Positions 36,258 through 61,908 of a stretch of 64,000 bases of DNA are shown here, piece after piece (the first letter of the stretch is position 1; the number at the start of each line of letters is the position of its first letter). A program made the position numbers and the translations under genes. The stretch lies in the NCBI GenBank assembly GCA_964035575.1, contig OZ037838.1, positions 1,488,001 to 1,552,000 of the forward strand, read 5' to 3'. This DNA is from Rhynchopus sp. YZ270_cl-10. Lineage: Eukaryota. Under the pieces are notes generated by a model. It was not told the origin of the DNA and made no database searches. It was given only the letters and a program-made list of their open reading frames with translations.

Positions 36258-37367
36258 ATGATGGATGTGACCTTTGTGCTGGAAGAGTCAGGCGTGACTG
36301 CGACAGTGGAGGTGCCGTGCGAGGCGGACGTTGCAGCGGCAAAGGAGGTTGCGTGCACGGCGCTTTCTGTCTCGCCTGCGTCTGTCGAGATGCGCATCGG
36401 CACGCAGGTGCTGGAGGGGACGTGCCGTCTGCAGGACACTGCGTTTGATGCAGGGGTGCAGGTTGTGCTTGCCCGCCGCACTGCCGACATCAAGTGTCCT
36501 GCTGAGTACAGTGTAGAGGCACCACCTGACGGGCAGGAGATGAATATCAATCACTTATCGCTGTCTCCTTGTGGAGCACTCTGCCTCTTTACACATAATG
36601 CACGCTACGTCACCGGCCTCGATACAGAAACCTTCAGCCCTGCCTTCAAGTTCAAAGTAGGCGTTAAGGTGTGCGGTCCGCCTGCCATCTCACGGTGCAA
36701 GACACGCTGCTACCTGGTGTGCAAGGAAGAAGGTCTGCACGAGGTTGCGCTTCCGGGTGGGGAGGTGCTCCGCAAAGTCGACGTCTTCTCCTCCGCAGTG
36801 TTCGCGTGTGGCGGTGTTGTTGTCTCCCAAGGCACAGACGGCGTCTCTGTGTATGACGAAGACCTGACGTTGCTCCGCACTCTCTCGCACGAAGAGTGCT
36901 GGCGCATGGCAGTGTCTGACTGTGGTGGGTGGGCGATCACTTCCTCCTCCAGTGAGAAGAAGGCACGTCTGTGGGATGTGAACACAGGTGAAGCTGTGGC
37001 ATGTGTGCCTGCTAGTAGGATGGTGGCGCTTTCACGATCTGCCTCGCTCTTTGCTGTGGTGTGGTTTGACGAAGTGCACCTCTTTGATTGGAGTGGTGTG
37101 GCTCTTGGCAACCTTAAAAGGGCGTATCATATATTTGCTGACCTGCAGTTCACTCCGTGTGGGAAGTATCTCGTAGTTCGGGTGATGGATATGGGTGCCA
37201 ATAAATATTTACTGTACCAGTATGATGTGACGACCATGTCCCGTGTGCGTGTGATACCGGACTCCGACGGCTGCCGTGAGTTTACGGTATCGCCATGTTC
37301 ACGTGTGGTACTATTTGCGAACTCGGGACGAGGTACTATTGAGACAAGACATCTGCACCCCTACTGA
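36258..37367 (+). CDS. Ubl-WD40-like protein (copy 3, 369 aa)
   Basis: Intact ORF with family Ubl and seven blades. Confidence 0.9.
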   Translation: MMDVTFVLEESGVTATVEVPCEADVAAAKEVACTALSVSPASVEMRIGTQVLEGTCRLQDTAFDAGVQVVLARRTADIKCPAEYSVEAPPDGQEMNINHLSLSPCGALCLFTHNARYVTGLDTETFSPAFKFKVGVKVCGPPAISRCKTRCYLVCKEEGLHEVALPGGEVLRKVDVFSSAVFACGGVVVSQGTDGVSVYDEDLTLLRTLSHEECWRMAVSDCGGWAITSSSSEKKARLWDVNTGEAVACVPASRMVALSRSASLFAVVWFDEVHLFDWSGVALGNLKRAYHIFADLQFTPCGKYLVVRVMDMGANKYLLYQYDVTTMSRVRVIPDSDGCREFTVSPCSRVVLFANSGRGTIETRHLHPY

Positions 37368-37741
37368 GTGATGTTTTGCGAGAGGTTGTGTATTTGCATC
37401 TTCTCGCAGGCAGTCCACGAATCAATAATATTATAGAAGGGGGGGTATTTCATTTTTATAAGACATGCGTGCATTTCTAGTGAAATTTTTGAGTATCCAC
37501 GAGTCGTTTTTTCCCTCCCGTGCTCCCCATCTCTCACACATACATTACATCTTTATCAGGAAAATTGTCAATTTTTCGCTCATTATTGTGAACAGCGTTT
37601 GGTGTTTTTCAAAAAAAAAAAAAACGCGGGTGCGGATGGGAAGAGAGCAAGGTGTCGCTCTTGCTTTGTTCTTTTGTAAAACCTTCATGTCTACATAATA
37701 CACCCAACCCCACACTACCCAATTCAGAAACGACGGTGGGT

Positions 37742-38050
37742 TGTGGTACTATTTACGAACGCGGGATGGGCCACTTTGTGACGAGACATCTGCACCCCTA
37801 CTGAGTGACGTTTTGCGAGAGGTTGTGTATTTGCATCTTCTCGCAGACAGTCCACGAATCAATAAATAGTGGAGCACACTCTAGGGTGGCTACACTAATA
37901 CAACCAAGTTTTCAATAAAGAAGGGGGGTATTTCATTTTTAAAAGTTACACGGGTAGGGATGGGAAGAGAGCAAGGTGTCGCTCTTGCTTCTTTCTTTTG
38001 TAAAACCTTCATGTCTACATAATACACCCAACCCAACTTCCCAATTCCAG
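37742..38050 (+). pseudogene. Tandemly duplicated 3' end of a Ubl-WD40 gene with its 3' flank
   Basis: gtggtactatttacgaacgcggga...acgagacatctgcacccctactga plus the post-stop hairpin and a repeat of parts of the 37436-37725 flank. Confidence 0.8.
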
Positions 38051-38074
38051 AAACCACGCAGGGGCGGGTGACTA

Positions 38075-39695
38075 ATGAATTTTTCGGACACATCTGATGG
38101 CTACAACTCATCAGGATCTACGATGCTTGATGTCATGGACACCGAAGAACTGCTGCTGACACTGCAGCAGACGTCTGTCAGGTGGCGCATGAAGAGACCC
38201 CCAACGTGTGTACATTTTATTATTTTTCAGATGTAAACCGCTACTAGACACAGGGTCAGTGTGCACCCGGTCATACATATATTACACTAAGGTACCCCAA
38301 GAGTGCTTTGTATTTGGAGTTATTTTTCTTATGATTCGGGGGAAGTGTGCCGTCTATTTTCTCCACACTGCATACAGGCCCATCGCCGCACGCATCTGCT
38401 CCGCCGCTGTGACTGACTCCATCCACTCGAAGCTGCTGTCCCTCGACCTCTCTGGGTACATCGGTGTCAAGGGTTTATGCTGCGCCTTCCAGACGTTGCT
38501 CCCGAACCTTCCGTTTCTGGAAAAGCTTTCTGTTGTGGGCGCAGGGATGTACTACGGCGACGCGTCTCAGCACCTGGCTGGGGATGGGGGTGTCGATGGG
38601 AACACGTGTGTAGGGGTGCTTGCAGATGAGGCGGCTGTGCACACATCGCTCCGGTGTTTGGACCTGCGGGACAACGGGATTGCGACGGTGGGTGCGAAGC
38701 GTCTGCTGCATATGATAGAAGCAAACGCACGCATCACAAGCCTCGACCTAGGCGGCAACCACATCAAAGGGCGTGAGCAGCGACTCATTGCAGACCGCCT
38801 CTGTATTAATGTCAATACCACGGACGCGCCGCAGGCACACCCCACACGACACAGACCCGACACAGACGACACACCATGCGTGCTCCCGCCAGGCCTCCCC
38901 CTGGATCTGCACACCCTCCTGGAAGGCGCTGTGTACCCAGTGACGTCGGTGTCCGCAGGTACCGTGCAGGATGCATTCCACATCGTCGTCCGTGGGTCTG
39001 TCGGTGTTGGTGTCGTGCAGCCTGCCCGCGGGGGTGCGAGCGGCACCGTAGCAACGTGCGCCACAGTGTGCGCGCCAGCACTGCTGCCGTACACTGCGCT
39101 GCTTGCGGAGGATGTGCCAGCAGGGGGGGAGACTGTGGGTGGTGCGTGGGACGGTGTCTGTGCAGACGACACCTTTCTGCGCACGTTTGTGCGCACTTGG
39201 CGTGGTGTCTCCCTTTCGGCTGTAGCAGGTGCGGATGCACAGATCCTCCGGGTGCGTGCGTCGCACACCCAAAGGGTAGCACGCGCCCTGCGCTCACGTC
39301 TCCTCAGCACGCTCCCCACAGTGGCGCGCGTGCCCTGGCTGCAGGGCCTTCCGTGGAGCAGGCTTCTCAGTCTCTGCGACTGCAGCACCGTGGCAACGTA
39401 CGCAGCAGGGGAACGCGTTGCGCGGCCTGCCCACCATGTACACGTCATCGCCTCTGGGACTGTGCAGGTGTGCGCTGGGGTTGAGGGGCAAGACAAGCAT
39501 GAAGAGCCTAGTGTGGCACGCATATACTCGGTGCTGGATGTGCTGGGGCTCGAGGCGTGTCTAACAGGGGATGAGGAGGAGGGGGAGGAGATGCACTGTG
39601 CCACGGCTGCAGCAGTCGTGCAGATTCCTGCGGCTGATCTTCTCAGTGCGGTGGACGAGTATTCAACTCGCGACGTTCTGAAGAGGGCAGTGTAG
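38075..39695 (+). CDS. LRR + two degenerate cyclic-nucleotide-binding domains; resembles euglenozoan PKA regulatory-subunit-like proteins (predicted exons 38075-38181, 38231-38254, 38378-39695)
   Basis: LRR block LDLSGYIGVKG...DGNTCV...HTSLRCLDLRDNGI...RLL; CNB-like AFHIVVRGSV and YAAGERV..HVHVIASGTVQV. Two phase-2 GT-AG introns give an in-frame model. The exon model is inferred. Confidence 0.7.
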
Positions 39696-40169
39696 TGTAG
39701 GGATGAGACACGTTTTTGCATTTACACGCGATTAGTTGGTTTTTTTTTTTCCAGACTGAGCACAATGCTCAGCTCAGCAGCCTTGCTCTTTAGTTTCTCT
39801 TTGTGATTTTGTGTTTAAGAATGTCGAGTATTTAAAAGAGGTAAAATAAGTCAATTTTTTGGTGCAGTGGGTCTTTGGGGTGATTGGCGCTTTCTCTGTG
39901 TTTGCTGTCAGTAGGGCGCGTAGCTCTATGGTTCTGCACTTCAGTGTTAATATGGGTGGGGCAGTTATTCACATGCAGTTACACCAGCCACCCCGTGTGG
40001 GAACGACCACACCACCCTTTACCTCTTTTTTTTTACTTTGTCTTAAGTTAAAAACTCTCTTCTGTTGGTAGAAACTACAGACACAACGAAACCATCACAA
40101 ACACACAAAACAAAACAACCCACACCTCACCCACTCCCAACAGAGGTGGAACAAGAAGAAGACAAAACA

Positions 40170-41324
40170 ATGGATGTGACCTTTGTGCTGGAAGAGTCAG
40201 GCGTGACTGCGACAGTGGAGGTGCCGTGCGAGGCGGACGTTGCAGCGGCAAAGGAGGTTGCGTGCACGGCGCTTGCTGTCTCGCCTGCGTCTGTCGAGAT
40301 GCGCATCGGCACGCAGGTGCTGGAGGGGACGTGCCGTCTGCAGGACACTGCCTTTGGTGCAGGGGTGCAGGTTGTGCTTGCCCGCCGCTTGGCCGACATC
40401 AAGTGTCCTGCTGAGTACAGTGTAGAGGTGCCACCTGAAGGGCAGGAGATGAATATCAATCTTTTAACGCTGTCTCCTTGTGGAGCACTCTGCCTCTTTA
40501 CACATAATGCACGCTACGTCACCGGCCTCGATACAGAAACCTTCAGCCCTGCCTTCAAGTTCAAAGTAGGCGTTAACGTGCATGGTCTGCCTGCCATCTC
40601 ACGGTGCAAGACACGCTGCTACCTGCCGTGCAAGGATGAAAGGGAAGCAGGTATACACGAGGTTGCGCTTCCGGGTGGGGAGGTGCTCCGCAAAGTCGAC
40701 GTCCTCTCCTCCGCAGTGTACGCGTGTGGTGGTGTTGTTGTCTCCTATGGTGAACAAGGAAGCGTCTCTGTGTATGACGAAGACCTGACGTTGCTCCGCA
40801 CTCTCTCGCACGCAGGGTGCAGGAAGGTGGCAGTGTCGGACTGTGGTGGGTGGGTGATCACCTGCTCCTGGGAGGAGAGAAACGCACGTCTGTGGGATGT
40901 GAACACAGGAGAAGCTGTTGCATGTGTTCCTGCTAATTGGAATAGTATCGTGGCGCTTTCACGATGTGCCTCTGTCTTTGCTGTGGCGAGTTCTGACGAA
41001 ATGCAGCTCTATGACTGGAGTGGTGCGGCTCTTGGCAACCTTAAAACGCCGTATCATATATTTGCTGACCTGCAGTTCACTCCCTCCGGGAAGTATCTCG
41101 TAGTACGGGTGTGTCGGTTGCTGGGTGTGGGTGCTAAATATATACTGCACCAGTATGATGTGGCGACCATGTCCTGTGTGCGTGAGATACCGGACTCGGA
41201 CGGCTACGATGCGTTTACGATATCGCCGTGTTCACGTGTGGTAGTGTTTGCGAACTCAGGACGAGGTACTTTTGAGACCTCGGGACGAAACACTATCGAG
41301 ACGAGACATCTGCACCCCTACTGA
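40170..41324 (+). CDS. Ubl-WD40-like protein (copy 4, 384 aa)
   Basis: Intact ORF; 8-aa duplication in the last variable loop. Confidence 0.9.
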   Translation: MDVTFVLEESGVTATVEVPCEADVAAAKEVACTALAVSPASVEMRIGTQVLEGTCRLQDTAFGAGVQVVLARRLADIKCPAEYSVEVPPEGQEMNINLLTLSPCGALCLFTHNARYVTGLDTETFSPAFKFKVGVNVHGLPAISRCKTRCYLPCKDEREAGIHEVALPGGEVLRKVDVLSSAVYACGGVVVSYGEQGSVSVYDEDLTLLRTLSHAGCRKVAVSDCGGWVITCSWEERNARLWDVNTGEAVACVPANWNSIVALSRCASVFAVASSDEMQLYDWSGAALGNLKTPYHIFADLQFTPSGKYLVVRVCRLLGVGAKYILHQYDVATMSCVREIPDSDGYDAFTISPCSRVVVFANSGRGTFETSGRNTIETRHLHPY

Positions 41325-41741
41325 GTGATGGTTTGCGAGAGGTTGTGTATTTGCAGCTTCTCGCAGGCAGTCCACGAATCCATAAAGAAGGGGGGGGGGA
41401 CCTGGGGGGGGGGTATTTCATTTTAAAAAGTTACACGGGTAGGGATGGGAAGAGAACAAGGTGTCGCTCTTTGGTGTGGCCAAATCCAAAAATAAAGTGT
41501 AATTTTTGTACTTCTAAGAATCTTTTGTATTATTTTTTGTATACCCAAAAAAAAGTCCTCGGAGTGTGCAAGAAAGCGGCGCACCTGACACCACTCCCAA
41601 CCACGTCATACGGTGCACTGATGGAAGATCACGCAGCCGACCTTCTGCCTACCTCGTAGAGGCAGGATTTATTGACGCAAAGACAGACGACCTTCTCCGA
41701 CCATCGCAGTAAGAGGGATGAGAGGGGAGGGGCATTTTTTT

Positions 41742-42858: not shown

Positions 42859-44558
42859 TATTTTCACACTTTTGTATTTTAAACCCCTCGCATACCCTTC
42901 CGCCCTTTTGTTGGTTCGCTCATTGTTTCACTGGAAAATATGCCCCATTCCCTCTTATTAAGAGAGCGTCTTGGTTCAGCCTTAACTCTGCAGCCTGAAG
43001 AATAAAACAAATAATGGAGCATATCTTCATCATGTGTACTGCTACTGCAATAAAGATATGATTACATGCAATGCTAAAAGGGAAATTGAACACCGTACCC
43101 CAACTCCCTTCCGTTTTCTATTCTGGGGCGGGTTGGAGTAGAGCCACATTTCACCCGACAGGTCGAGGTGTGTGCGTTTCGCCACAACCTCTCCCTTTTG
43201 TCTTTATTGTTTTTATTGCTTTGGAAAAAACGCAAAAAGGAGTGCGGTTTCAATTTCTACTCAGCGGTACAATGATCTGGTGTTTTTTCCCCCTTGCACT
43301 TTCATTGAATCACTATGAAAGTGCCTTTTTACATCCCTTTGACACATGTTGGTTCGTGAGGGTTACCTGACGCAGGAGCTTTTCTTGGAACTGTTTCATT
43401 CTCCTCACCCCAACAACATCACATTCAGAGAAGCATTGTTTTTTCGTTTTTATTCGCTTTCTTTTCTTCTTCCTCACACTTTGTTACTGTGAAGAAATTT
43501 TTTTTCGTTTCTAGTCGCATTCTTTGCGTCAGGTGTTCCATGCGTAGGGTCTAGCTGGCCTTAGCGACCGGAACCAACCTCCTTTCAACCTTGTTCTTGA
43601 TTTATCTCTACTTTAGCAGCAAAAATCCTGGTTTTTCACTCCCTAGTCCCATCCTGGTCGCAAACGCGAGTTTTCCTGGAAGCGCAGGAAAAATGACTGG
43701 GGAGTGTTGGTGGCTCCGTGACGCCACAGAGCCGGCACACTCGTTGGAAAAAAGGAAAAAAAACCGTTTATATAAATCCCTGGCCCCGACGTGCAATAGA
43801 ATTAAAAAAAAGCCCGCACACCTTGGGGGGAGGTGTGCGGGCTGTAACCCCACCTCTACTTTCCCACTTTTGAAAAGAGGGCAGTTTTCTTAGCTGTTAC
43901 CTCCGGCACCCCCTTCTTAGCATGTAGCCGTGCAATGGTGTAGAACACCTTGATGCGGACTACCCCTTTGAAGGTTCTTTTCATCCTAAAAGTTGCTCTC
44001 AAGGGTTCAGGACGAACGACGTCTATACCTTCCGTAGTACAAACGCTTCGGCCAACATTGAGTACAGACCCGAATTCTCCCACCTGATAGGATTACTCGG
44101 CGATTGTCAACACAACAAAAAACATCATAGCATTGCTTTAGTGCCGCGTCCACGACGCGTTGCACTGCCAACATCACTTTTCTTTTCTTTTCAAAAAAAA
44201 ATAAAAAAAAACCCCCCTATTTTTTTACTCCGTGGTTAGTGATGCAGTCCACCCTGTGTGGGAAGTACCTCCTCGCTGTCGCTGAGTACTGCGGTTGCTA
44301 TCGTGCGTTGCATCAGTATTTGCGTTGCACCTTCGACCTCCTATCATGTGAGGGAATTTATTTTGAGACATTTTCACGATTAACGACCACACCACCCTTT
44401 ACCTCTCTTTCACTTTTGCTTTGTTAAAACCCTCTTCTGTTGGTGGAAACTACAGACACAACGAAAGTCACTAACATATAAAAGAACCCACCCCTCATCT
44501 CCTCCCAACACCTCCTAGATCTATCCCAACAGAGGTGGAAAAAGAAGAAGACAAAACA

Positions 44559-46161: not shown

Positions 46162-47250
46162 ATGGATGTGACCTTTGTGCTGGAAGAGTCAGGCATGACT
46201 GCGACAGTGGAGGTGCCGTGCGAGGCGGACGTTGCAGCGGCAAAGGAGGTTGCGTGCACGGCGCTTGCTGTCTCGCCTGCGTCTGTCGAGATGCGCATCG
46301 GCACGCAGGTGCTGGAGGGGACGTGCCGTCTGCAAGACACTGCGTTTGATGCAGGGGTACAGGTTGTGCTTGCCCGTCGCTTGGCTGACATCAAGTGTCC
46401 TGCTCAGTACACTGTATCACCGCATACGGAACACTTGTCGCTGTCTCCTTGTGGAACACTTTGCGTTTTTTACCATGATAACTGGGTCATGTCTTTTGGT
46501 GGCTTCGACACAGAAACGTTCGAGACTGCGTTTGAGTTTGACATCCATTTATCTGGTCGAGGTCCGCCTGCCATCTCACGGTGCAAGACACGCTGCTACA
46601 TGGCGTTTGGGCATTATCTTGCGGAGGTTGCGCTTCCGAGTGGGGAGGTGCTCCGCAAAGTTGACTGCTCCTCGTTCTCAGTGTTCGCGTGTGGTGGTGT
46701 TGTTGTCTCCAAGGGAAAAGATGGTGTCTCTGTGTATGATAAAGACTTCACGTTGCTTCGCTCGATCTCGCACAAAGGGTGCAGGGAGGTGGCAGTGTCG
46801 GACTGTGGTGGGTGGGTGATCACCTCCTCCTGGGAGGAACCGAACGTACGTCTGTGGGATGTGAACACAGGTGAAGCTGTGGCATGTGTGCCTGCGAATG
46901 GTGGGCATGTGGCGATCTCGCAGGCTGCCTCTGTCTTTGCTGTGGCGAGTTCTGATGAAATGCAGCTCTATGACTGGAGTGGTGCTGCTCTTGCCTGCTT
47001 GGAAAAGGAGGAATATCGTTGTGTCTGTGGCGTGCAGTTCACTCCGTGTGGGAAGTATCTCGTACTGGTGTTGGGGCGTGGAGAATATGCTGCGTACAAC
47101 CTTCACCAGTATGATGTGACGACCATGTCCTGTGTGCGTGTGATACAGGACAGTGCGCATATTTTTGTGATTTCGCCGTGTTCACATGTGGTCATGTTTG
47201 AGTCATCAGAAAGGGGCGCCCTTGTGACACAGCATCTGTACCCCTACTGA
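46162..47250 (+). CDS. Ubl-WD40-like protein (copy 6, 362 aa)
   Basis: Intact ORF, closest to copy 5. Confidence 0.9.
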   Translation: MDVTFVLEESGMTATVEVPCEADVAAAKEVACTALAVSPASVEMRIGTQVLEGTCRLQDTAFDAGVQVVLARRLADIKCPAQYTVSPHTEHLSLSPCGTLCVFYHDNWVMSFGGFDTETFETAFEFDIHLSGRGPPAISRCKTRCYMAFGHYLAEVALPSGEVLRKVDCSSFSVFACGGVVVSKGKDGVSVYDKDFTLLRSISHKGCREVAVSDCGGWVITSSWEEPNVRLWDVNTGEAVACVPANGGHVAISQAASVFAVASSDEMQLYDWSGAALACLEKEEYRCVCGVQFTPCGKYLVLVLGRGEYAAYNLHQYDVTTMSCVRVIQDSAHIFVISPCSHVVMFESSERGALVTQHLYPY

Positions 47251-47849: not shown

Positions 47850-48944
47850 ATGGATGTGACCTTTGTGCTGGAAGAGTCAGGCGTGACTGTGACAGTGGAG
47901 GTGCCGTGCGAGGCGGACGTTGCAGCGGCAAAGGAGGTTGCGTGCACGGCGCTTGCTGTCTCGCCTGCGTCTGTCGAGATGCGCATCGGCACGCAGGTAC
48001 TGGAGGGGACGTGCCGTCTGCAGGACACTGCGTTTGATGCAGGGGTGCAGGTTGTGCTTGCCCGCCGCTTTGCCGACATCAAGTGTCCTGCTGCATTTTG
48101 TGTCGACGAGAGCATGGAGTTCTTCGTGTCTCTGTCATGTTGTGGAACGCTGTGCCTGTACTATGATAGGTGGCATGAGTGTTTAGTTGGCTTCGACACA
48201 GAAACCTTTGGCACTTCTTTCCAGCTCGTAGTGGGAATGCACCGCGGCAGACCTTGCATCTCGCAGTGCAGGACACACTGCTACGTGGCGTACGACGGCA
48301 TACGTAAGATCGCGCTTCCTGGTGGAGAGGAGCTCCGTGGAGTTGGCACCAACTCGAGTGCAGTGTTCGCGTGTGGTGGTGTTGTTGTCTCCCAGGGTGA
48401 AGACGGGGTCTCTGTGTATGACGAAGACTTGACGTTGCTCCGCTCTCTCTCGCTCGAAGGATGTCAGAGGATAGCGGTTTCGGACTGTGGTGAGTGGGTG
48501 ATTGGCACTTCTCGCGAAAACAACAACGTATGTCTGTGGGATGTGAAAACAGGTGAAGCTGTGGTGTGTGTGTCTCTTGGGTGGCGGTGTGAAGCAGTGG
48601 CACTCTCACGGTCTGCCTCCGTCTTTGCTGTGGGGGGGTACGAGGGTGTGGATCTCTATGATTGGAGTGGTGTACAACTTCACGAAAAACGCGTTGTGTG
48701 TCGGGATGTCGAGGGTTTGCAGTTCACGCCGTGTGGGAAGTACCTTGTGGTCCACGTAGTCAGTCAAGCGTGGCGCGACGAATTCGAACTGCACCAGTAC
48801 GACATGACAACCATGTCTCGTGTACTTGTGATACCGTGTGTCGGTTTATCGTTTGCGGTATCGCCATGTTCACGTGTGGTTGTGTTTGGTTCAATGTCAC
48901 ACGAAGTTGTGACGAGACACCTGTACCCACACAACAGTGAGTAA
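47850..48944 (+). CDS. Ubl-WD40-like protein (copy 7, 364 aa; divergent propeller, ends HNSE)
   Basis: Intact ORF. The Ubl is near-identical to other copies while the propeller is among the most divergent. Confidence 0.9.
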   Translation: MDVTFVLEESGVTVTVEVPCEADVAAAKEVACTALAVSPASVEMRIGTQVLEGTCRLQDTAFDAGVQVVLARRFADIKCPAAFCVDESMEFFVSLSCCGTLCLYYDRWHECLVGFDTETFGTSFQLVVGMHRGRPCISQCRTHCYVAYDGIRKIALPGGEELRGVGTNSSAVFACGGVVVSQGEDGVSVYDEDLTLLRSLSLEGCQRIAVSDCGEWVIGTSRENNNVCLWDVKTGEAVVCVSLGWRCEAVALSRSASVFAVGGYEGVDLYDWSGVQLHEKRVVCRDVEGLQFTPCGKYLVVHVVSQAWRDEFELHQYDMTTMSRVLVIPCVGLSFAVSPCSRVVVFGSMSHEVVTRHLYPHNSE

Positions 48945-49484
48945 AACATCCCCTATCGCTTTGCGGCTTTTTCCCTGTGGAGAGAGAGTGAGTGTCATGT
49001 TTTTGCTTCTGTGTTGGTCTATTTTATTGCGTCAATAACGAGGTACATTTGCAAACCCGCAACCCGTATTTCTGGTTACGTTTTGAACTTACCTCTTGTA
49101 ATTGTGCTACAAAAACAGAAAGGGTGTATGTCTTCTGTTCTCTTGAATTGAAGGACTTCAGACTGTACAAATCTAACCTTTGCCCATACCCATGTTTGCC
49201 TCTCTACCCATCATGAACACGATACCACCCGATTCTTTCGAACCCTTTCCCACACTCCCCAACGCGCCCTCACTCAGCAGCATCTACACGAGCACATGCG
49301 TTGTGCGTTCCCCGAAGACGTGCTTTCCCTTGACGGGACTATGGACAAGAAGCCTTCTACGAAGTGGAGGCAGCCGAGTGCTCCCGAGGGGATCACGGTG
49401 TCACTGCGGCAGCTGGACACAAAACAAAACAACCCACCCCTCATCTCCTTCCCAACAGAGGTGGAACAAGAAGAAGACAAAACA

Positions 49485-50583
49485 ATGGATGTGACCTTTG
49501 TGCTGGAAGAGTCAGGCGTGACTGCGACAGTGGAGGTGCCGTGCGAGGCGGACGTTGCAGCGGCAAAGGAGGTTGCGTGCAGGGCGCTTGCTGTCTCGCC
49601 TGCGTCTGTCGAGATGCGCATCGGCACGCAGGTGCTGGAGGGGACGTGCCGTCTGCAGGACACTGCGTTTGATGCAGGGGTGCAGGTTGTGCTTTGCCTG
49701 TCCTCGCTTGGCCGACATCAAGTGTCCTGTTGAGTACACTGTACCACCGCATACGTAACACTTGTCGCTGTCTCCTTGTGGAGCACTCTGCCTCTATGTC
49801 CACAATGCTTTAAAAGGACATATTGGCGGCTTCGACACAGACACATTCGAAACTGCTTTTGACTTTGAAGTGTACCCCCATGCGTCCGGCCCACCTGCCA
49901 TCTCGCAGTGCAAGACACGCTGCTTCCTGACGTGCAAGGATGGCATACGCGAGGTTGCGCTTCCGGGTGGGGAGGTGCTCCGCAAAGTCGACGGCCCTTC
50001 GTTCTCAGTGTTCGCGTGTGGCAGTGTTGTTGTCTCCCAAGGTGAAGACGGGGTCTCTGTGTATGACGAAGACCTGACGTTGCTCCACACTCTATCGCAC
50101 GCTGCCTGCACGTCTTTAGCGGTGTCGGACTGTGGTGGGTGGGTGATCACCTCCTCCTGGGAGGAGAGGAACGCACGTCTGTGGGATGTGAACACATGTG
50201 AAACTGTGGCATGTGTGCCGGTGGGGCGCATACCACAGGGGTGCCCAGTAGCTCTTTCCCGGTCTGCCTCTGCCTTTGCTGTGGACTCTGACGTGAAGCT
50301 TTATGATTGGAGTGGCGCGGCTCTTGGCAGCTTCGATGTACATGGTGGCAGGGTCGGGAACGTGCAGTTCACTCCGTGTGGGAAGTACCTTGTCGTGAGT
50401 GTTTCCGTATTGGCAAGTTTTGAGGTGCACCTGTACCAGTATGACGCGATGACCCTTTCCTGCGTGCGTGAGTTCACAGATGCTGCCGGTCCGTCGTTTG
50501 TGATATCACCGTGTTCACGTGTGATTGTCTATACGAGCATGAGCTACATTGCAACAAGGAATCTACACCCCCACAGCGAGTGA
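49485..50583 (+). pseudogene. Ubl-WD40 copy 8, disrupted
   Basis: Extra T at ~49694 (gtgctttgcc vs gtgcttgcc) and a GAA>TAA stop at 49756-49758. The propeller downstream remains open. Confidence 0.85.
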
Positions 50584-51396: not shown

Positions 51397-52566
51397 ATGA
51401 TGGATGTGACCTTTGTGCTGGAAGAGTCAGGCGTGACTGCGACAGTGGAGGTGCCGTGCGAGGCGGACGTTGCAGCGGCAAAGGAGGTTGCGTGCACGGC
51501 ACTTGCTGTCTCGCCTGCGTCTGTCGAGATGCGCATCGGCACGCAGGTGCTGGAGGGGACGTGCCGTCTGCAGGACACTGCGTTTGGTGCAGGGGTGCAG
51601 GTTGTGCTTGCCCGCCGCTTTGCCGACATCAAGTGTCCTGCTGAGTACAGTGTAGAGGCGCCTGCTGAGTACAGGGAGGATATAGAATACTTGTCACTGT
51701 CGCGTTGTGGAACGCTTTGCGTTTTTTGGAAGCGCTTTGGGCGTGTTGGCGGCTTCGACACAGAAACCTTCGACACTGTCTTCTCGTTCAAAGTGGACGA
51801 CACTATTGCGTCCGGTGCGCCTGCCATCTCGCAGTGCAAGACACTCTACTACGTGCCGTGCAGGAACTACTTTTGCAAGGTTGCGCTTCCGGGTGGGGAG
51901 GTGCTCCGCAAAATTGACGTCACCTCGAACGCAGTGTCCGCGTGTGGTGGTGTTGTTGTCTCCCAGGGTGACGACGGCGTCTCTGTGTATGACGAAGACC
52001 TGACGTTGCTCCGCACTATCTCGCACGAAGAGTGCTTTGACGTAGAAGTGTCGGACTGCGGTGGGTGGGTGATCACCTCTTCCTGGAAGAACAACGTACG
52101 TCTGTGGGATGTGAGCACAGGTGAATCTGTGGCGTGTGTGCAGTTTGGTGGGTGCGCGCTTTCACGGTGTGCCTCTGTCTTTGCTGTACGGGACGAATGC
52201 AGCGTGCACCTCTATGATTGGATGGGTGCGGCTCTTCGCAGTGTTGATGTGGCTGTAGGTCGGGAGGTCAAAGGCATGCAGTTCACACCGTGTGGGAAGT
52301 ACCTTGTGGTCAGGGTGGGTGTTGCGCTCTACACACGCACCTATGATGCAGATGGTAGTTGTAGTGCACAATATTATGGTTTCGATGGACGACTGCACCA
52401 GTATGATGTGGCGACCATGTCCTGTGTGCGTGTGATCCCGCAAACCTATGTTCAGTCGTTTGCGATATCACCGTGTTCACGTGTAGTTGTGTTTGAATGT
52501 GAAGACAAAAGCGATACACCAGCAGTCATTGTAACAAGGCATCTGTACCCACACAACAGTGAGTGA
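51397..52566 (+). CDS. Ubl-WD40-like protein (copy 9, 389 aa; ends HNSE)
   Basis: Intact ORF with a long insertion in the blade-6 loop (GVALYTRTYDADGSCSAQYYGFDG). Confidence 0.9.
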   Translation: MMDVTFVLEESGVTATVEVPCEADVAAAKEVACTALAVSPASVEMRIGTQVLEGTCRLQDTAFGAGVQVVLARRFADIKCPAEYSVEAPAEYREDIEYLSLSRCGTLCVFWKRFGRVGGFDTETFDTVFSFKVDDTIASGAPAISQCKTLYYVPCRNYFCKVALPGGEVLRKIDVTSNAVSACGGVVVSQGDDGVSVYDEDLTLLRTISHEECFDVEVSDCGGWVITSSWKNNVRLWDVSTGESVACVQFGGCALSRCASVFAVRDECSVHLYDWMGAALRSVDVAVGREVKGMQFTPCGKYLVVRVGVALYTRTYDADGSCSAQYYGFDGRLHQYDVATMSCVRVIPQTYVQSFAISPCSRVVVFECEDKSDTPAVIVTRHLYPHNSE

Positions 52567-53034: not shown

Positions 53035-54168
53035 ATGATGGATGTGACCTTTGTGCTGGAAGAGTCAGGCGTGACTGCGACAGTGGAGGTGCCGTGCGAG
53101 GCGGACGTTGCAGCGGCAAAGGAGGTTGCGTGCACGGCGCTTTCTGTCTCGCCTGCGTCTGTCGAGATGCGCATCGGCACGCAGGTGCTGGAGGGGACGT
53201 GCCGTCTGCAGGACACTGCGTTTGATGCAGGGGTGCAGGTTGTGCTTGCCCGCCGCACTGCCGACATCAAGTGTCCTGTTGAGTACACTGTACCACCGGA
53301 TACGGAACACTTGTCGCTGTCTCCTTGTGGAGCACTCTGCCTTTTTGCACAGGAGGATGGCAATGTGACCGTCCTCGATACAGAAGCCTTCGGCCCTGCC
53401 TTCAATTTCAAAGTAGGAATGTCGTTGTGCGGTCTGCCTGCCATCTCACGGTGCAAGACACGCTGTTACCTGCCGTGTAGGGAAGGTCTGCACGAGGTTG
53501 CGCTTCCGGGTGGGGAGGTGCTCCGCAAAGTCGACGTCCTCTCCTCCGCAGTGTTCGCGTGTGGTGGTGTTGTTGTCTCCCAAGGCACAGACGGCGTCTC
53601 TGTGTATGATGAAGACCTGACGTTGCTCCGCTCTCTCTCGCACGAAGGGTGCAGGAGCATGGCAGTGTCGGACTGTGGTGGGTGGGTGATTACCGTCCCC
53701 CTCAGTGAGAACAACGCACGTCTGTGGGATATGAACACAGGTGAAGCTGTGGCATGTGTGCCTACAGATGGCTGGTGTGTTGTGCTTTCACCACCTCTTG
53801 TGGCGCTTTCACGATCTGCCTCTGTCTTTGCTGTGGTGTGCCCCGACAAAGTGCAGCTCTATGACTGGAGTGGTGCGGCTCTTGGCTGCTTTGAAAAGGA
53901 GCAGTGTGGCGTCTGTGGCGTGCAGTTCACTCCGTGTGGGAAGTACGTCGTTGTTGGGTTCGTGAAGAAGTTACACGGTTTTTGCTTTGGGACGCTTTCA
54001 CCAGACCTCCACCAGTATGATGTAGCGACCATGTCTTGTGTGCGTGTGATACAGGACACCTCCGGTGGGTTAGTGATATCGCCGTGTTCGCGTGTGGTTA
54101 TGTTCAGGGCAGCAGGAGGTGACGCAGCAAGTGACGTCCTTGTATCACGACATCTGTACCCCTACTGA
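53035..54168 (+). CDS. Ubl-WD40-like protein (copy 10, 377 aa)
   Basis: Intact ORF. Confidence 0.9.
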   Translation: MMDVTFVLEESGVTATVEVPCEADVAAAKEVACTALSVSPASVEMRIGTQVLEGTCRLQDTAFDAGVQVVLARRTADIKCPVEYTVPPDTEHLSLSPCGALCLFAQEDGNVTVLDTEAFGPAFNFKVGMSLCGLPAISRCKTRCYLPCREGLHEVALPGGEVLRKVDVLSSAVFACGGVVVSQGTDGVSVYDEDLTLLRSLSHEGCRSMAVSDCGGWVITVPLSENNARLWDMNTGEAVACVPTDGWCVVLSPPLVALSRSASVFAVVCPDKVQLYDWSGAALGCFEKEQCGVCGVQFTPCGKYVVVGFVKKLHGFCFGTLSPDLHQYDVATMSCVRVIQDTSGGLVISPCSRVVMFRAAGGDAASDVLVSRHLYPY

Positions 54169-54708: not shown

Positions 54709-55383
54709 ATGTCGTCACAGATCTCCTTCACCTCTGAAGCCTCATGCCCACAGTGGGAGACAAACACATTTCGCCCCTCGAAGTGCAAAGCGTGTGGTGC
54801 TGAGTTCAGTTCGCACTGTCCTGAGAGCGTGACGGAGGAGGATGTGCGTGCGTATCTTGGGCACGTTAATGCGCGGGCACCGTGCAACGAGGTGCTTCCG
54901 CGTACCGGGGCGGTGGGGGCACTGTTCCTAGGTGGTGCGCAGGCGTCGTCACGCGAGAACCTTGAAGTGTGCAGCATTGCAGCTATGGTGCAGACTGCGA
55001 AGGGGTTGGAGTCGTTCTATCCTCTTCTGGGGAAGCGGCTTGCCGGGTTCGAGGCGGAAGGGGCACTGGAGGTGTTGCGGACGGAGTGGGATGATGTGGG
55101 CAGTCAGGTTCTGAGCGGGCTTGGTGATGCAGTACGCTTTGTCCACAGGCACCGTGCGAAGGGAAGCAACGTTCTTGTGTCCTGCGCGCAGGGAAAGTCG
55201 CGCTCCACATCGCTTGTGGTGGCGTACCTTCTCGCAACCTCGCAATCCGCATCTGTGCAAGAAGCACTCCAACACACCCAAAGCAAGCGGGCCATTGCCG
55301 AACCCAACCCTGGATTCATGGCGCAACTCCACACCTTCCATAAATCCGAAGAACTCAAAGAGCTAAAAGAGGAGCTGAAATAA
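54709..55383 (+). CDS. Dual-specificity protein phosphatase with N-terminal C3H Zn-finger-like motif (224 aa)
   Basis: LFLGG, VLVSCAQGKSRSTSLVVAYLL (CX5R) and KRAIAEPNPGFMAQL are canonical DSP motifs. N-terminal CPQWETNTFRPSKCKACGAEFSSH. Confidence 0.9.
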   Translation: MSSQISFTSEASCPQWETNTFRPSKCKACGAEFSSHCPESVTEEDVRAYLGHVNARAPCNEVLPRTGAVGALFLGGAQASSRENLEVCSIAAMVQTAKGLESFYPLLGKRLAGFEAEGALEVLRTEWDDVGSQVLSGLGDAVRFVHRHRAKGSNVLVSCAQGKSRSTSLVVAYLLATSQSASVQEALQHTQSKRAIAEPNPGFMAQLHTFHKSEELKELKEELK

Positions 55384-56080: not shown

Positions 56081-57233
56081 TGTTTTCTAAGTAAAGGTTG
56101 TTCTTAAACCCTGCAAACAGCACATTCATTTTTTCCATCTCGAGTTTTTTTTTTATCTCTCTGCTTTTTTCAGGGTATTATATAGCCCCCCTAGCCCCAC
56201 CAAAAAGGTGGTTTTGTGTGAGGCAGTCATTTTTTCCTGTGGGGGAAACGCAGCGAAATATTTTCTCGGTAATTTGTGATCCACGGCCAACCCACACCAC
56301 CCCAACCCTGCGGAAAAGCCTCCCCTCCTCTGTGCAGCCTTGGTAGCTTTCAGCCACTGGTGATCCGCAATCCGGAGTGGGTGTCAGCCATATTGTCGGT
56401 AACCTCAGCACATTTACAAGAAGGTCATGGCACCCAAAGGTTCTTGGCGAAGCCACGGTACGCAACATTTCTAAAATCGCGCTTTAAAATTGCACTATTT
56501 TATAGGCAAACAATGTCATGGGAAGGGTGTGAGGTAAGCTTGCGCCGCAGGCGCACGGTACTTTTATTCTTTTCGCCATATCTTTTTTCTCACTCATAGT
56601 TGGGTTCTTCAAGCTCCGTCCGTCAAATGAACCCTTTTTTGCGGAGCAAAAAAAGGAAAAATGGCGCCGCCGGCAAAAAAAATTGTAAGGTACAGCCTGG
56701 ATGGTGCGGTCAGCAACCCAGTTCCCCCGGGTACTGCGTACTCCCGTGGTTCAACCACGGTTCTTTCCCCCATATTTTTTCCCTCCCGAAATCCAAATCT
56801 ATATTTTTGGAGAGAAGAATTTTGGATCCGAATATAGGCCGAATATCATATTCGCTTTCTAGGGGGGGCTATATAAAACCCTGGCTTTTTTTTGTGTTAC
56901 GACCGTAGTAGCATACCATGATGTTCCGTAGGTGTACGGTCGATAATTTGTACGAATACGGTATCATGTGTTCCCTTACTCATGCCACCACAGCAGCGGA
57001 GTGTTCAGGAGGAACGTTGTACTCTCTACCTACCAGCCTGTGCGAAGATGCATTTTGAGACATTTTGAGAAGACGACCGCACCCTCTTTTTCACTTTTGT
57101 TTTCTCCTGTTGCTTTGTTCTTACCCTCGTCTGTGTTAGTGGAAACTACGGAAATGAAACCATCACAAAGACACAAAACAGAACCACACCTCATCTCCTC
57201 CCAACAGAGCTGGAACAAGAAGAAGACAAAACA

Positions 57234-58348
57234 ATGGATGTGACCTTTGTGCTGGAAGAGTCAGGCGTGACTGCGACAGTGGAGGTGCCGTGCGAGGCGG
57301 ACGCTGCAGCGGCAAAGGAGGTTGCGTGCACGGCGCTTGCTGTCTCGCCTGCTTCTGTCGAGATGCGCATCGGCACGCAGGTGCTGGAGGGGACGTGCCG
57401 TCTGCAGACACTGCGTTTGATGCAGGGGTGCAGGTTGTGCTTGCCCGCCGCACTGCCGACATCAAGTGTCCTGCTGAGTACAGTGTAGAGAGGCCAATTG
57501 GAAAGCCGGAGAGGAAAATTAGGCATTTATCGCTGTCTCTTTGTGGAGCACTCTGCCTCTTTACACAGGAGGAAGGATATTTCGCCGGCCTCAATACAGA
57601 AACCTTCAGCCCTGCCTTCAAGTTCAAAGTAGACATTAAGGTGTGGGGTGCGCCTGCCATCTCACGGTGCAAGACACGGTGCTACATGGCGGATGGGAAT
57701 TGTCTTGCGGAGGTTGCGCTTCCGGGTGGGGAGGTGCTCCGCAAAGTCGAGGTCGCCTTAATAGCAGTGTTCGCGTGTGGCGGTGTTGTTGTCTCCCAAG
57801 GCACAGACGGCGTCTCTGTGTATGACGAAGACCTGACGTTGCTCCGCTCTCTCTCGCATGCACGGTGTGCGAACTTGGCAGTATCGGACTGTGGTGGGTG
57901 GGTGATCACCTCCTCCCACAGTGAGAACAACGTACGCCTGTGGGATGTGAGCACAGGTGAAGCTGTGGCATGTGTGCCTGGAAATGCAAAGGGGTTCAAG
58001 GTGTCGCTTTCACGGTCTGCTTCAGTTTTTGCTATGGGTTATCACGGAGTGCAGCTGTATGACTGGAGTGGTGCGGCTCTTGGATGTATTGAAAAAGCTG
58101 GGTCTTCTGTTATCTCTTCCATGCAGTTCACTCTGTGTGGGAAGTATCTCGTAGTTCATTTCATGAAGGGTGATTATGACGGATATGCACTGCACCAGTA
58201 TGATGTGGCGACCATGTCCTGTGTGCGTGTGTTCTCCAAACCCGACTTCTCTCCCGCGTCATTTGCAATATCGCCGTGTTCACGTGTGGTACTATTGACG
58301 AACGCGGGACGAGACACTATTGAGACGAGACATCCGTACCCCTACTGA
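57234..58348 (+). pseudogene. Ubl-WD40 copy 11 with a single 1-bp deletion at ~57407 (real pseudogene or sequencing error)
   Basis: ctgcagacact versus ctgcaggacact in all other copies; the remainder is open. Confidence 0.7.
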
Positions 58349-58809
58349 GTGATGTTTTGCGAGAGGTTGTGTTTGTGCAGCTTCTCGCAGGTACCCCAGA
58401 AGCACCCGACATCCGTCATATGTGGGTAACTACTATGTTCAGGATCTTACTCGTGTGCAGGTGACAGCATCTCATTATGTTCTTGTTCTCTTGCTCTTTC
58501 ACTCATGTGTTCTGTCAACAAATGCTTCAGGTGGAAGCGTACAACTAACAAACTCTCCCCCTTTTTTTGCTTCCCGTTTTCCTGTGTGGGCTGAAGATAG
58601 CTCGGAGCCTTCTAGCCTGTGAGAGAATTCATTTTCATATATTTGAGGATAACGACCACACCCTCACCTTTCTTTTTCAGTTTTGCTTTGTTAACCCTGT
58701 ACTGTTGGTGGAAACTACAGACAGAACGAAACCATCACAAACACACAAAACAAAACAACCCACACCTCACCTACTCCTGACAGAGGTGGAACAAGAAGAA
58801 GACAAAACA

Positions 58810-59928
58810 ATGGATGTGACCTTTGTGCTGGAAGAGTCAGGCGTGACTGCGACAGTGGAGGTGCCGTGCGAGGCGGACGTTGCAGCGGCAAAGGAGGTTG
58901 CGTGCACGGCGCTTGCTGTCTCGCCTGCGTCTGTCGAGATGCGCATCGGCACGCAGGTGCTGGAGGGGACGTGCCGTCTGCAGGACACTGCGTTTGATGC
59001 AGGGATGCAGGTCGTGCTTGCCTGTCCTCGCTTGGCCGACATCAAGTGTCCTGCTGAGTACACTGTAGAGTCGCCACCTGGGAGGCATAGGAAGAATATT
59101 AATCTTTTATCGCTGTCTCCTTGTGGAGCACTCTGCCTCTTTAGACAGGATGAACGCCATTTCACCGGCCTCGATACAGAAACCTTCAGCCTTGCCTTCA
59201 AGTTCAAATCAGACATTGTGGTGTGGGGTGCGCCTGCCATCTCACGGTGCAAGACACACTGCTACATGGCGGATGGGAATTGTCTTGCGGAGGTTGCGCT
59301 TCCGGGTGGGGAGGTGCTCCGCAAAGTCGACGGCTCCTCCGGTAAAGTGTTCGCGTGTGGCAGTGTTGTTGTCACAAAGGGAAAATACGGCGTCTCTGTG
59401 TATGACGAAGACCTGACGTTGCTCCGCTCGCTCTCGCATGAAGGGTGCAGGGACATGGCAGTGTCGGACTGTGGTGGGTGGGTGATCACCTCCTCGGAGA
59501 AGGACGCACGTCTGTGGGATGTGAACACAGGTGAAGCTGTGGCATGTGTGCCTGCGGATGGGTGGTGTGTTGCGCTTTCGCGGCCTGCCTCTGTCTTTGC
59601 TGTGCTATGCTCTAACAAAGTGCAGCTCTATGACTGGAGTGGTGCGGCTCTTGGCTGCTTTAAAGAGGAGCAGTGTGATGTCGCTGGCGTGCAGTTCACT
59701 CCGTGTGGGAAGTACGCCGTAGTTAGGTTCCTGGACGGACGATGCTTCGGGAAGAATTACCTGCACCAGTATGATGTGGCAACCATGTCCTGTGTGCGTG
59801 TGATACAGGACAGCAAAGGTCTATTTGAGATATCGCCATGTTCACGTGTGATTATGTTTGTGTTCAAGGCAGCAGGAGGTGACACAGGAAATGACGTCCT
59901 TGTCGCAAGGCATCTGTACCCCTACTGA
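58810..59928 (+). CDS. Ubl-WD40-like protein (copy 12, 372 aa)
   Basis: Intact ORF. Confidence 0.9.
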   Translation: MDVTFVLEESGVTATVEVPCEADVAAAKEVACTALAVSPASVEMRIGTQVLEGTCRLQDTAFDAGMQVVLACPRLADIKCPAEYTVESPPGRHRKNINLLSLSPCGALCLFRQDERHFTGLDTETFSLAFKFKSDIVVWGAPAISRCKTHCYMADGNCLAEVALPGGEVLRKVDGSSGKVFACGSVVVTKGKYGVSVYDEDLTLLRSLSHEGCRDMAVSDCGGWVITSSEKDARLWDVNTGEAVACVPADGWCVALSRPASVFAVLCSNKVQLYDWSGAALGCFKEEQCDVAGVQFTPCGKYAVVRFLDGRCFGKNYLHQYDVATMSCVRVIQDSKGLFEISPCSRVIMFVFKAAGGDTGNDVLVARHLYPY

Positions 59929-60021
59929 GTGATGCAGTCCGCCCTGTGTGGGAAGTACCTCCTTGCTGTTGCTGAGTATAACGACTACCCTTTACCTCTC
60001 TTCTTCTAAGTAAAAGAAAAC

Positions 60022-60140
60022 CGACGCAGGAGCTTTTCTTGGAACTGTTTTATTCTCCCCACCCCAACAACATCGTATTCAGAAAAACAGTGTTTTTTTT
60101 TCGTTTTTTTTCGCTTTCTTTTCTTCTCCCTCACACCTTT
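60022..60140 (+). repeat. Dispersed repeat, paired with ~43369-43480
   Basis: gacgcaggagcttttcttggaactgttt...ccccaacaacatc...cgctttcttttcttc at both sites. Confidence 0.8.
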
Positions 60141-60780
60141 TTGTTGTGGTGTTTCAGGTTGTAAAACAGATATTCAGTATTCCATGTGGAGGGCCCTATG
60201 TTGGTCTAGTGGAGCACACTGTGAGCTCTGGCCGCTTGCCTTTCGAAGGTGGTGGCGAAGTGGCGTTCAAGGTGTGAAACAGATATTTGTTCAGTGCGTA
60301 CCACTCTGTGTGGCATGTCTCGGTAATATTTCCCTGTGCTAGTCTCACAGTAGTGACGATCTCTGCCCTTAGTGCGTTTATCTTTGTTTGCGTTTTTTTG
60401 TGTTCCTTGCAATAATTTTGTACTCCCTAGTCGCATACGCGAGTTTTCCTTAGTGGTATCCTGGAAGCGCAGGAAAAAGACTGAGGAGTGTTGGTGGAAG
60501 TTCACGTTGCTCTTATTTATTGTCCTCACTCTTTATCATTGTTGTTGGGTTGGGAAATAAATAACTTATCTCGAGAATGATCTTGGTGCACCTCGCTTGT
60601 CGTAAGGTGACTTTGTGAGGGTCCGAACTCTGCCTGGTAGTAAGGAGTGAGCTTGTCTTCAAATTGCTTGCTTTGTCAGAGTTTGTTGAAACACGTATTT
60701 AACCCACCAACCTTCATATTTGGTCATTGCGAAGTGACACCACCAGCCATCACATCAAACACAACAGAGCCCTTAATAAT

Positions 60781-61908
60781 ATGATGGATGTGACCTTTGT
60801 GCTGGAAGAGTCAGGCGTGACTGCGACAGTGGAGGTGCCGTGCGAGGCGGACGTTGCAGCGGCAAAGGAGGTTGCGTGCACGGCGCTTGCTGTCTCGCCT
60901 GCGTCTGTCGAGATGCGCATCGGCACGCAGGTGCTGGAGGGGACGTGCCGTCTGCAGGACACTGCGTTTGGTGCAGGGGTGCAGGTTGTGCTTGCCCGCC
61001 GCTTTGCCGACATCAAGTGTCCTGTTGAGTACAGTGCAGAGGCGCGACCTGGGAGGCAGGGGATGCATATTAATCTCTTATCGCTGTCTCCTTGTGGAGC
61101 ACTCTGCCTCTTTACACATAATGCAGGCAGCATTACAGGCTGCTTCACCGGCCTCGATACAAAAACCTTCAGCCCTTCCTTCGAGTTCAGAGTAGGCATT
61201 CCGGTGTACAGTGCGCCTGCCATCTCACGGTGCAAGACACGCTGCTACATGGCGAGTATGCATTTTCTTGCGGAGGTTGCGCTTCCGGGTGGGGAGGTGC
61301 TCCGCAAAGTCGAAGGCACCTCGACGTTGGTGTTCGCGTGTGGCGGTGTTGTTGTCTCGAAGGGCAAAGACGGCGTCTCTGTGTATGACGAAGACCTGAC
61401 GTTGCTCCGCTCTCTCTCGCACAAAGGGTGTATGAGTGTGGCTGTGTCTGACTGTGGTGGGTGGGTGATCACCTCCTCCGACAAGGAGAAGAACGCACGT
61501 CTGTGGGATGTGAACACAGGTGAAGCTGTGGCATGTGTGCCTGCGGATGGGTGGTGTGTTGCGCTTTCACGGTCTGCCTCTGTCTTTGCTGTGGTGTGCT
61601 CTGACAAAGCGCAGCTCTATGACTGGAGTGGTGCGGCTCTTGGCAGCTTTGAAAAGGAGCAGTGTGGCGTCTGTGGCGTGCAGTTCACCCCGTGTGGGAA
61701 GTACGTCGTTGTTGGGTTCGTGAACGAACGATACTTTGGGATGCGTTCACTGTGCCTGCACCAGTATGATGTGGCGACCCTGTCTTGTGTGCGTGTGATA
61801 CAGGACACCTCCGGTAGGTTAGTGATATCGCCGTGTTCACGTGTGGTTATGTTTGGTTCAGCAAAAGGAGGTGGCGCCCTTGTAACACAGCATCTGTACC
61901 CCTACTGA
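60781..61908 (+). CDS. Ubl-WD40-like protein (copy 13, 375 aa)
   Basis: Intact ORF. Confidence 0.9.
   Translation: MMDVTFVLEESGVTATVEVPCEADVAAAKEVACTALAVSPASVEMRIGTQVLEGTCRLQDTAFGAGVQVVLARRFADIKCPVEYSAEARPGRQGMHINLLSLSPCGALCLFTHNAGSITGCFTGLDTKTFSPSFEFRVGIPVYSAPAISRCKTRCYMASMHFLAEVALPGGEVLRKVEGTSTLVFACGGVVVSKGKDGVSVYDEDLTLLRSLSHKGCMSVAVSDCGGWVITSSDKEKNARLWDVNTGEAVACVPADGWCVALSRSASVFAVVCSDKAQLYDWSGAALGSFEKEQCGVCGVQFTPCGKYVVVGFVNERYFGMRSLCLHQYDVATLSCVRVIQDTSGRLVISPCSRVVMFGSAKGGGALVTQHLYPY

Follow-up and report, generated by a model that had tools for sequence, protein, structure and literature searches.

A predicted ubiquitin-like domain and a propeller variable on one face: a candidate recognition repertoire in Rhynchopus

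Why should one part of a protein be nearly the same in every copy of a gene array when another part differs from copy to copy, and what could such a set of proteins be for? This question is raised by a 64,000-nucleotide (nt) stretch of contig OZ037838.1 (positions 1,488,001 to 1,552,000, forward strand, assembly GCA_964035575.1) of the protist Rhynchopus sp. YZ270_cl-10, the whole of which we call the window. It holds 13 copies of a gene for a predicted ubiquitin-like (Ubl) domain followed by a predicted WD40-like propeller. A count of the N-terminal motif places all 13 on the + strand, 2 in 507-3040 and 11 in 36261-61908, and bears out the number given by the original prediction, a note made from the letters of the sequence, including the copies at 507-3040.

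Our answer is that these genes appear to belong to a lineage-specific and intronless family of Ubl-plus-seven-bladed-propeller proteins, whose predicted top face is diversified by recombination and positive selection. A recognition repertoire is likely because a selected, recombining surface lies on one face in a very large family and is carried on a constant module, as in HET-E and the nematode F-box genes. Such proteins could form an intracellular adaptor repertoire, in which foreign proteins are caught on the top face and docked through the Ubl on a host disposal machine, and we lean, if only slightly, towards this reading. It is built on the sequence and on structural models, and what it says of target, partner, localization and expression is inferred from these.

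Predicted folds and the placing of variation

AlphaFold2 run on 94 family members gave a propeller of seven four-stranded blades, with a predicted local distance difference test (pLDDT) of 81.9 and a predicted template modeling score (pTM) of 0.77. Foldseek matches this part to G-beta (E-value 9e-16) and to the WD40 domain of PkwA (template modeling score (TM) on the target 0.79), at 13-18% identity to solved WD40 proteins. All six window copies tested score under the PF00400 cut-off of 27 bits (best 24.2), and the relatives P0188 and P0274 pass it. The blades differ clearly within a copy, each fixed motif occurring about once per copy.

Variation was placed on this model with 108 homologues from outside the window, which remained of 120 after 9 window matches and 3 proteins of odd length had been removed. 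The top and bottom halves were assigned from the strand order of the model rather than from coordinates, and several strand limits had to be set manually because DSSP had fused strands or cut them short. All 60 columns with at least 2.5 bits of entropy fall on the top half (19 in D-A loops, 20 in B-C loops and 21 in the top halves of strands), and none of the columns in the A-B or C-D loops reaches 2 bits. Mean entropy is 2.08 for the top, 0.46 for the bottom and 0.13 for the Ubl. The variable segments had been proposed to be the D-A and B-C loops, and this is what we find, with the adjoining strand ends added. In WD40 propellers the binding platform on the top side is made up of the D-A loops and the B-C turns (PMC1805685).

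Two divergent, indel-rich segments per blade had also been described. There are indeed 14 variable segments in the alignment of 120 proteins, but only about 8 of the 14 are rich in insertions and deletions. Each segment occurs in 82-117 distinct versions among 119 proteins, a count affected by the clustering of the database at 90% identity, which removes near-duplicates. The commonest length has a share of 0.23-0.95 in the 14 top connectors and of 0.96-1.00 in 13 bottom ones. The fixed blocks that had been named recur in 11-13 of the 13 copies within mismatch limits when they have five or more residues (SPCG is too short to count and is visible in the alignment). The blade-6 loops that had been quoted, five in number, are present in copies as written.

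On the conserved face, the A-B loops of most blades keep a Ser/Thr-x-Cys-Gly/Ser/Lys motif (e.g. 61084-61098), and in blades 1 and 2 this motif is unchanged as far out as the most distant members. From the strand topology, the Ubl linker and a constant C-terminal motif are predicted to lie on this same face, opposite to the variable one.

The N-terminus was expected to be a beta-grasp domain, and the models agree. In the first whole-protein model the Ubl was at low confidence; refolded with an alignment holding divergent members it reached a pLDDT of 83.8. This model matches the ubiquitin structure 1ubq in Foldseek with a TM of 0.84 and a root-mean-square deviation (rmsd) of 2.0, and ubiquitin in VIA-align with a Z of 13.0 and an rmsd of 1.4 over 75 residues, and its structural matches are headed by ubiquitin and ISG15. 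Additionally, a profile of six family Ubls aligns without gaps to ubiquitin 4-63, and the distant member P0277 matches PF00240 with an E-value of 7e-5, under the Pfam cut-off. No ubiquitin-family match was found by Pfam or phmmer for the window Ubl alone, or by phmmer for the Ubl of P0188. Both folds, and the arrangement of variation on one face, are predictions of the models.

Exchange, homogenization and selection

The loops recombine between paralogues. Site incompatibility grows with distance, also when bottom-face sites are taken alone (p 0.0005), and the relatedness of loops, with a rho of 0.20 for neighbors, is close to 0 from a distance of three segments onward (permutation p 0.002), a decay to which saturation may contribute. 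There are 24 protein pairs with one identical segment of at least 10 residues and more than 50% difference in the other segments. P0122 combines a Ubl of 98.6% identity with a propeller of 55% identity, and at the other end of the gene a near-identical Ubl follows different 5' leaders. In the distant members the two parts have diverged to a similar degree (27-45% identity for the Ubl and 25-32% for the propeller). The order of events was not read from the protein tree, a quick version in which many forks are open and branches are long.

The near-identity of the Ubl-coding region, including its synonymous sites, was confirmed. Over its first 216 nt, 12 copies share 96.3-100% identity, with a mean of 98.0%, the copy at 57234 being left out for its deletion. 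At four-fold sites the difference is 2.2% for the Ubl, against 18% for the bottom half of the propeller and 25% for its top half. The synonymous divergence (dS) rises from 0.025 in the Ubl to 0.21 in the constant columns of the propeller and 0.83 in the most variable ones. At the protein level 105 of 117 Ubls differ from the majority at no more than 3 of 71 residues. Frequent exchange between paralogues would homogenize the long unbroken 5' block, and the short constant blocks less so; it would also swap the loops behind this block and so give new combinations on the face, with selection keeping the loops different. Exchange, homogenization and selection together appear to be the simplest reading of the pattern.

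The 11 intact window copies provided 258 propeller codons free of gaps for the tests of selection, with indel-rich columns excluded. The site model M8 fits better than M7, with a 2dL of 192.5 and an omega (the ratio dN/dS of nonsynonymous to synonymous divergence) of 4.1 at 20% of sites, and all 37 sites with a posterior above 0.9 lie on the top half. We rejected the plain M8 omega of 4.1, which is inflated because the synonymous divergence varies along the gene. With its own synonymous rate the selected class has an omega of 1.75 (likelihood ratio test (LRT) 9.3), and with multi-nucleotide changes added, after re-optimization, 2.25 (LRT 13.7). Columns that were picked from the non-window proteins give 1.56-2.51 on one tree and 1.61-2.81 when the gene is divided into 4 or 7 segments, each with its own tree (p 0.009 to 5e-5). 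In 150 neutral simulations that used an identical choice of columns, the single-tree values were never reached (95th percentiles 1.33 and 1.24). The bottom face is under purifying selection, with an omega of 0.37-0.42, and the bottom loops have 0.36. The positive selection persists when variation in the synonymous rate, multi-nucleotide changes, recombination and the choice of columns are controlled for; it is real but moderate and limited to a subset of top-face sites.

Several results weigh against a recognition repertoire. The omega of the whole top face, 1.11-1.18, does not differ from 1. For the loops, averaged over their 39 codons without gaps, it is 0.70 by counting and 1.04 by likelihood. 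The expected dN/dS above 1 in the loops is seen in a subset of top-face codons (omega about 1.6-2.8), and the loop average is borderline. All the tests rest on 11 DNA sequences and our own codon-model code, and a first multi-nucleotide mixture fit, at a local optimum, did not beat the null as the re-optimized one did. The dS is also higher in the top loops (0.92 against 0.21 in the bottom loops), and thus much of the contrast between top and bottom is escape from homogenization. The Ubl handle is constant as had been said, but given that its constancy spans synonymous sites (dN/dS 0.38, on few changes) this is largely homogenization of DNA, a sign of function only in part and weak evidence for a constrained handle. 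The variable columns are enriched in charged and not in aromatic residues (FWYH 0.116 against 0.120 expected). Variation is also patchy in a neighboring family of proteins of about 518 residues (described below), and therefore some of the patchiness may be general to the arrays of this genome.

Some of these results would fit a runaway tandem expansion with little function, in which gene conversion keeps the 5' block, purifying selection keeps the fold and the top face drifts. The omega near 1 over the whole top face, the Ubl synonymous sites as invariant as the Ubl protein, the frameshifted copies and remnants in the array and the lack of aromatic enrichment are all on its side. However, omega is above 1 at the pre-chosen columns under all partition and multi-hit settings, no neutral simulation matches it, and the bottom loops are exposed too and yet conserved. 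With 11 of 13 copies intact and an architecture that is old, we consider such an expansion unlikely.

A further point concerns the surface of the Ubl. In the profile alignment Glu9, Glu43, Arg45 and Thr48 stand at Leu8, Arg42, Ile44 and Gly47 of ubiquitin, and in the window copies there is no di-glycine and the domain continues into the linker. Because the patch residues of ubiquitin are replaced and the di-glycine is missing, the modeled Ubl is best described as an integral domain with a non-canonical surface. The Leu8/Ile44 hydrophobic patch has a role in the proteasome binding of canonical Ubl domains of the Rad23/Dsk2 type, and with the Ile44 patch missing, canonical binding to the ubiquitin receptors of the proteasome is therefore unlikely as judged from the alignment. 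A partner in the ubiquitin-proteasome or AAA-ATPase machinery would be bound through another surface. The missing receptor-binding patch would also suit decoys, that is, propellers that mimic host WD40 proteins attacked by pathogen effectors, with the Ubl as a stabilizer or as bait for pathogen ubiquitin enzymes, and selection on the binding face fits this kind of arms race equally well. A bait Ubl would be expected to diversify, yet 105 of the 117 stay close to the majority, and the propellers have only 13-18% identity to solved WD40 proteins, so that decoys seem very unlikely to us.

The array and the wider family

The DNA of the window is eukaryotic-looking, with 50% GC, the standard code and long open reading frames (ORFs) without introns. 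Of the 13 copies 11 are intact intronless ORFs of 358-388 amino acids (aa) and 2 carry a 1-nt frameshift, and a 14th is truncated by the start of the window, with its 3' end present. The features of the family are the following.

28..183, + strand: further copy, 3' end, cut by the window start (tblastn, residues 325-374)
507..1622, + strand: Ubl-propeller gene, intact, 371 aa
1955..3040, + strand: Ubl-propeller gene, intact, 361 aa
36261..37367, + strand: Ubl-propeller gene, intact, 368 aa; second ATG at 36258
37775..37865, + strand: remnant, the last codons of a copy and a duplicated 3' flank; start approximate
40170..41324, + strand: Ubl-propeller gene, intact, 384 aa
44559..45635, + strand: Ubl-propeller gene, intact, 358 aa
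46085..46161, + strand: example of a 5' leader, about 77 nt, conserved at 91-97% among most copies of the first leader type
46162..47250, + strand: Ubl-propeller gene, intact, 362 aa; nearest to the copy at 44559
47850..48944, + strand: Ubl-propeller gene, intact, 364 aa; the most divergent propeller of the window, Ubl of the common type
49485..50583, + strand: frameshifted copy (1 nt, near 49693, within a short homopolymer); either a pseudogene or an error of the assembly
51400..52566, + strand: Ubl-propeller gene, intact, 388 aa; second 5' leader type; longest blade-6 B-C loop of the window
53038..54168, + strand: Ubl-propeller gene, intact, 376 aa; second 5' leader type
57234..58348, + strand: frameshifted copy (1 nt, near 57406); either a pseudogene or an error of the assembly
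58810..59928, + strand: Ubl-propeller gene, intact, 372 aa
60784..61908, + strand: Ubl-propeller gene, intact, 374 aa; reference copy of the models
60784..60999, + strand: Ubl domain of the reference copy, residues 1-72 (model pLDDT 83.8, Foldseek and VIA-align to ubiquitin, profile alignment)
61024..61905, + strand: residues 81-374 of the reference copy, predicted WD40-like propeller with seven blades, in which strand 81-84 probably closes blade 7 (model, Foldseek)

The most divergent copy is reproduced without difference by short-read contigs of run X1, which may be the source sample (48064-49468), and of run X4 from another study (48743-49234), and its variation is therefore not an assembly error. 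In runs X6-X10 the shares that match are small and X6 gives only 19 short pieces, for which reason we infer no habitat or range from these runs. At 49693 and 57406 the short-read contigs come mainly from paralogues; contigs extend over intergenic DNA too. About 100-170 nt upstream of several copies a pyrimidine-rich tract is followed by CAG (e.g. 44390-44460), which we take to resemble a splice or trans-splice acceptor.

A search with the copy at 60784 found 415 proteins at an E-value of at most 0.001, of which the best 120 were listed; the other 295 may include fragments or unrelated WD40 proteins. The listed relatives have 63-79% identity to the query, the query itself aside, and 9 of them are window copies. 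Among the 120 matches listed, 86 are apparently on the window's own contig and 34 are spread over 12 others. The family probably has hundreds of copies, and many dozens in any case, and it seems to come from a single lineage, and probably from a single assembly. When 1.84 billion representatives were searched with a profile, older subfamilies came up together with the four distant members P0164, P0171, P0188 and P0191, and a search with these four added P0277. The remaining hits in the best 150 of the profile search are long proteins matched over the propeller only; the four of these that were scanned are all multi-WD40, two of them with an nSTAND1 domain. Given that members at 25-32% propeller identity still carry the Ubl, the architecture is old as judged by sequence, and every member seen retains the propeller. 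Six longer hits carry the Ubl. Of the four that were read, one is a read-through of tandem copies, two are extended at the C-terminus and one is preceded by a B-box unit. P0272 and P0273 have a common C-terminal extension of about 360 aa, from fusion or read-through.

The rest of the window holds other features, several of them among the copies. At 14154-26366 (+) there are five tandem copies of the unrelated protein of about 518 aa, which has a signal-peptide-like start and no Pfam match; they are 89-96% identical with their differences in patches, and two of them (19511 and 25167) share a frameshift after codon 118 or so. A TRIM-like gene at 28682-30496 (+) has two B-boxes, a coiled region, a Ubl-like stretch (by eye), BspA-type leucine-rich repeats (LRRs) and a Gly/Phe-rich tail, and possibly represents a second recognition family. 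A B-box unit related to it precedes the Ubl-propeller in P0274, and the family Ubl profile does not match the Ubl-like stretch of the TRIM-like gene. An 862-aa protein at 31108-33696 (+) has a signal-like start, three internal repeats, a C-terminal membrane-like segment and no clear Pfam family, and a long tandem repeat with a 7-nt unit lies at about 34480-34900. Among the copies there are a gene with LRRs and a weak cyclic-nucleotide-binding match (38331-39695, +), a dual-specificity phosphatase gene (54709-55383, +; PF00782, E-value 1.6e-17) and, at 56171-56883, an element of high read depth that ends in inverted repeats of 21 nt and is likely a non-autonomous DNA transposon.

Known systems and the proposed function

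The original prediction drew a parallel with HET-E/NWD and F-box/WD40 proteins, which applies to the mode of evolution and not to membership. In the HNWD/NWD genes of Podospora anserina (HET-E, HET-D) a WD40 repertoire likewise arises from sequence exchange together with positive selection, which acts on the D-A loop and the B-C turn of the top platform, in the HET-E repertoire as here (PMC1805685). However, there are 10 genes there and more than 100 here, and the N-terminal module here is a Ubl. Each gene here has one propeller with blades unlike each other, in place of the near-identical repeats of an HNWD/NWD gene, and the exchange is between paralogues at matching positions. NACHT and HET domains are absent, as the ORFs of 358-388 aa are Ubl and propeller entirely, with no NTPase match. 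The rapidly evolving F-box families of Caenorhabditis share with the present family a constant, constrained N-terminal handle, a C-terminal substrate-binding domain under selection and a birth-and-death expansion, and have been proposed to recognize foreign proteins (PMC8665587). Here the handle is a Ubl and not an F-box or BTB, and Pfam finds no F-box match in the window copies. F-box/WD40 and BTB-Kelch adaptors likewise pair a constant handle with a substrate-binding domain.

An N-terminal integral Ubl followed by a WD40 propeller is also found in Rsa4/NLE1 and Ytm1/WDR12, where the Ubl is a handle for the AAA-ATPase midasin (PMC8122580). The claim that the family had not been described before thus has to be narrowed: the architecture was known, though only from these housekeeping proteins, and what appears to be new is the expanded Ubl-propeller family, of which we found none in the literature searched (at the level of titles and abstracts, with subscription papers mostly outside reach). 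Rsa4/NLE1 and Ytm1/WDR12 are essential and conserved ribosome-assembly factors, whereas the family here is expanded and hypervariable, with 13 copies in 64 kb. It works like the HNWD and F-box repertoires while being a member of neither, and it has the domain order of Rsa4/Ytm1 without the housekeeping character.

The shared order could also point to a self-directed repertoire, for kin or mating-type recognition or for many endogenous substrates, possibly derived from a Ubl-WD40 gene like Rsa4/Ytm1 and still pulled by midasin or another AAA-ATPase. In Rsa4/NLE1 and Ytm1/WDR12 an acidic residue of the Ubl binds the MIDAS (PMC8122580), and HET-E repertoires serve allorecognition (PMC1805685). 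In our data Glu43 is invariant in 6 aligned Ubls. The Atlas hits, all below 0.9 and to be taken as leads only, include a cluster of NLE-WD40 proteins at 0.84. However, NLE (PF08154) is not listed by Pfam for two window Ubls or for the distant members, in a scan whose HMMER filters drop weak matches, and the structural matches are headed by ubiquitin and ISG15. Given also that fixed endogenous substrates would not drive an ongoing diversification, we find a self-directed repertoire most unlikely.

The Crinkler (CRN) proteins are another comparison to be made, as their families are expanded and a conserved Ubl header precedes C-termini that vary and recombine, the header lacking a true signal peptide and being joined at a recombination hotspot (PMC5289972). 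By this analogy the Ubl here, also constant on varied propellers, would be a trafficking header, and the propellers would be exported effectors delivered into prey, host or competitor cells. However, Pfam gives no Crinkler match for two window Ubls, the sequence has no LXLFLAK motif, and the C-terminus is a binding fold kept in every member seen and not an enzymatic toxin domain, which makes export distinctly unlikely.

For the adaptor repertoire, an intracellular location would follow from the proteins beginning with the Ubl and having no signal or membrane segment by inspection, and the selective agent may be an antagonist such as viruses or intracellular bacteria. Midnolin shows how a Ubl and a substrate-catching domain in one chain can deliver proteins to the proteasome without ubiquitination (PMC12088389). 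It differs in being a single gene with a Catch domain, an RPN1-binding helix and a Ubl that mimics ubiquitin at RPN11 with an equivalent of Gly76, none of which is seen here. In its boldest form our proposal would be an immune repertoire of hundreds of one-piece degraders, in which the propeller catches a viral or bacterial protein, the non-canonical Ubl hands it to the proteasome or an AAA-ATPase without an E3 ligase, and shuffling of loops renews the specificities; taken as a whole this version is fairly unlikely. The word antibody-like, used in the original prediction, overstates the case and can be kept as an analogy only, since this is a germline multigene family whose variable columns have no aromatic enrichment.

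The recognition of viruses and intracellular bacteria by protists is largely unknown, and this family is a concrete and testable candidate for it. It offers a large germline repertoire with one constant module and one variable face on which the selected residues have been mapped, and, at the level of prediction, small binding scaffolds encoded by single exons, a library provided by nature in which 14 loops tolerate change. If the adaptor reading is true, the Ubl would join the F-box, BTB and NACHT domains as a constant handle for diversified recognition.

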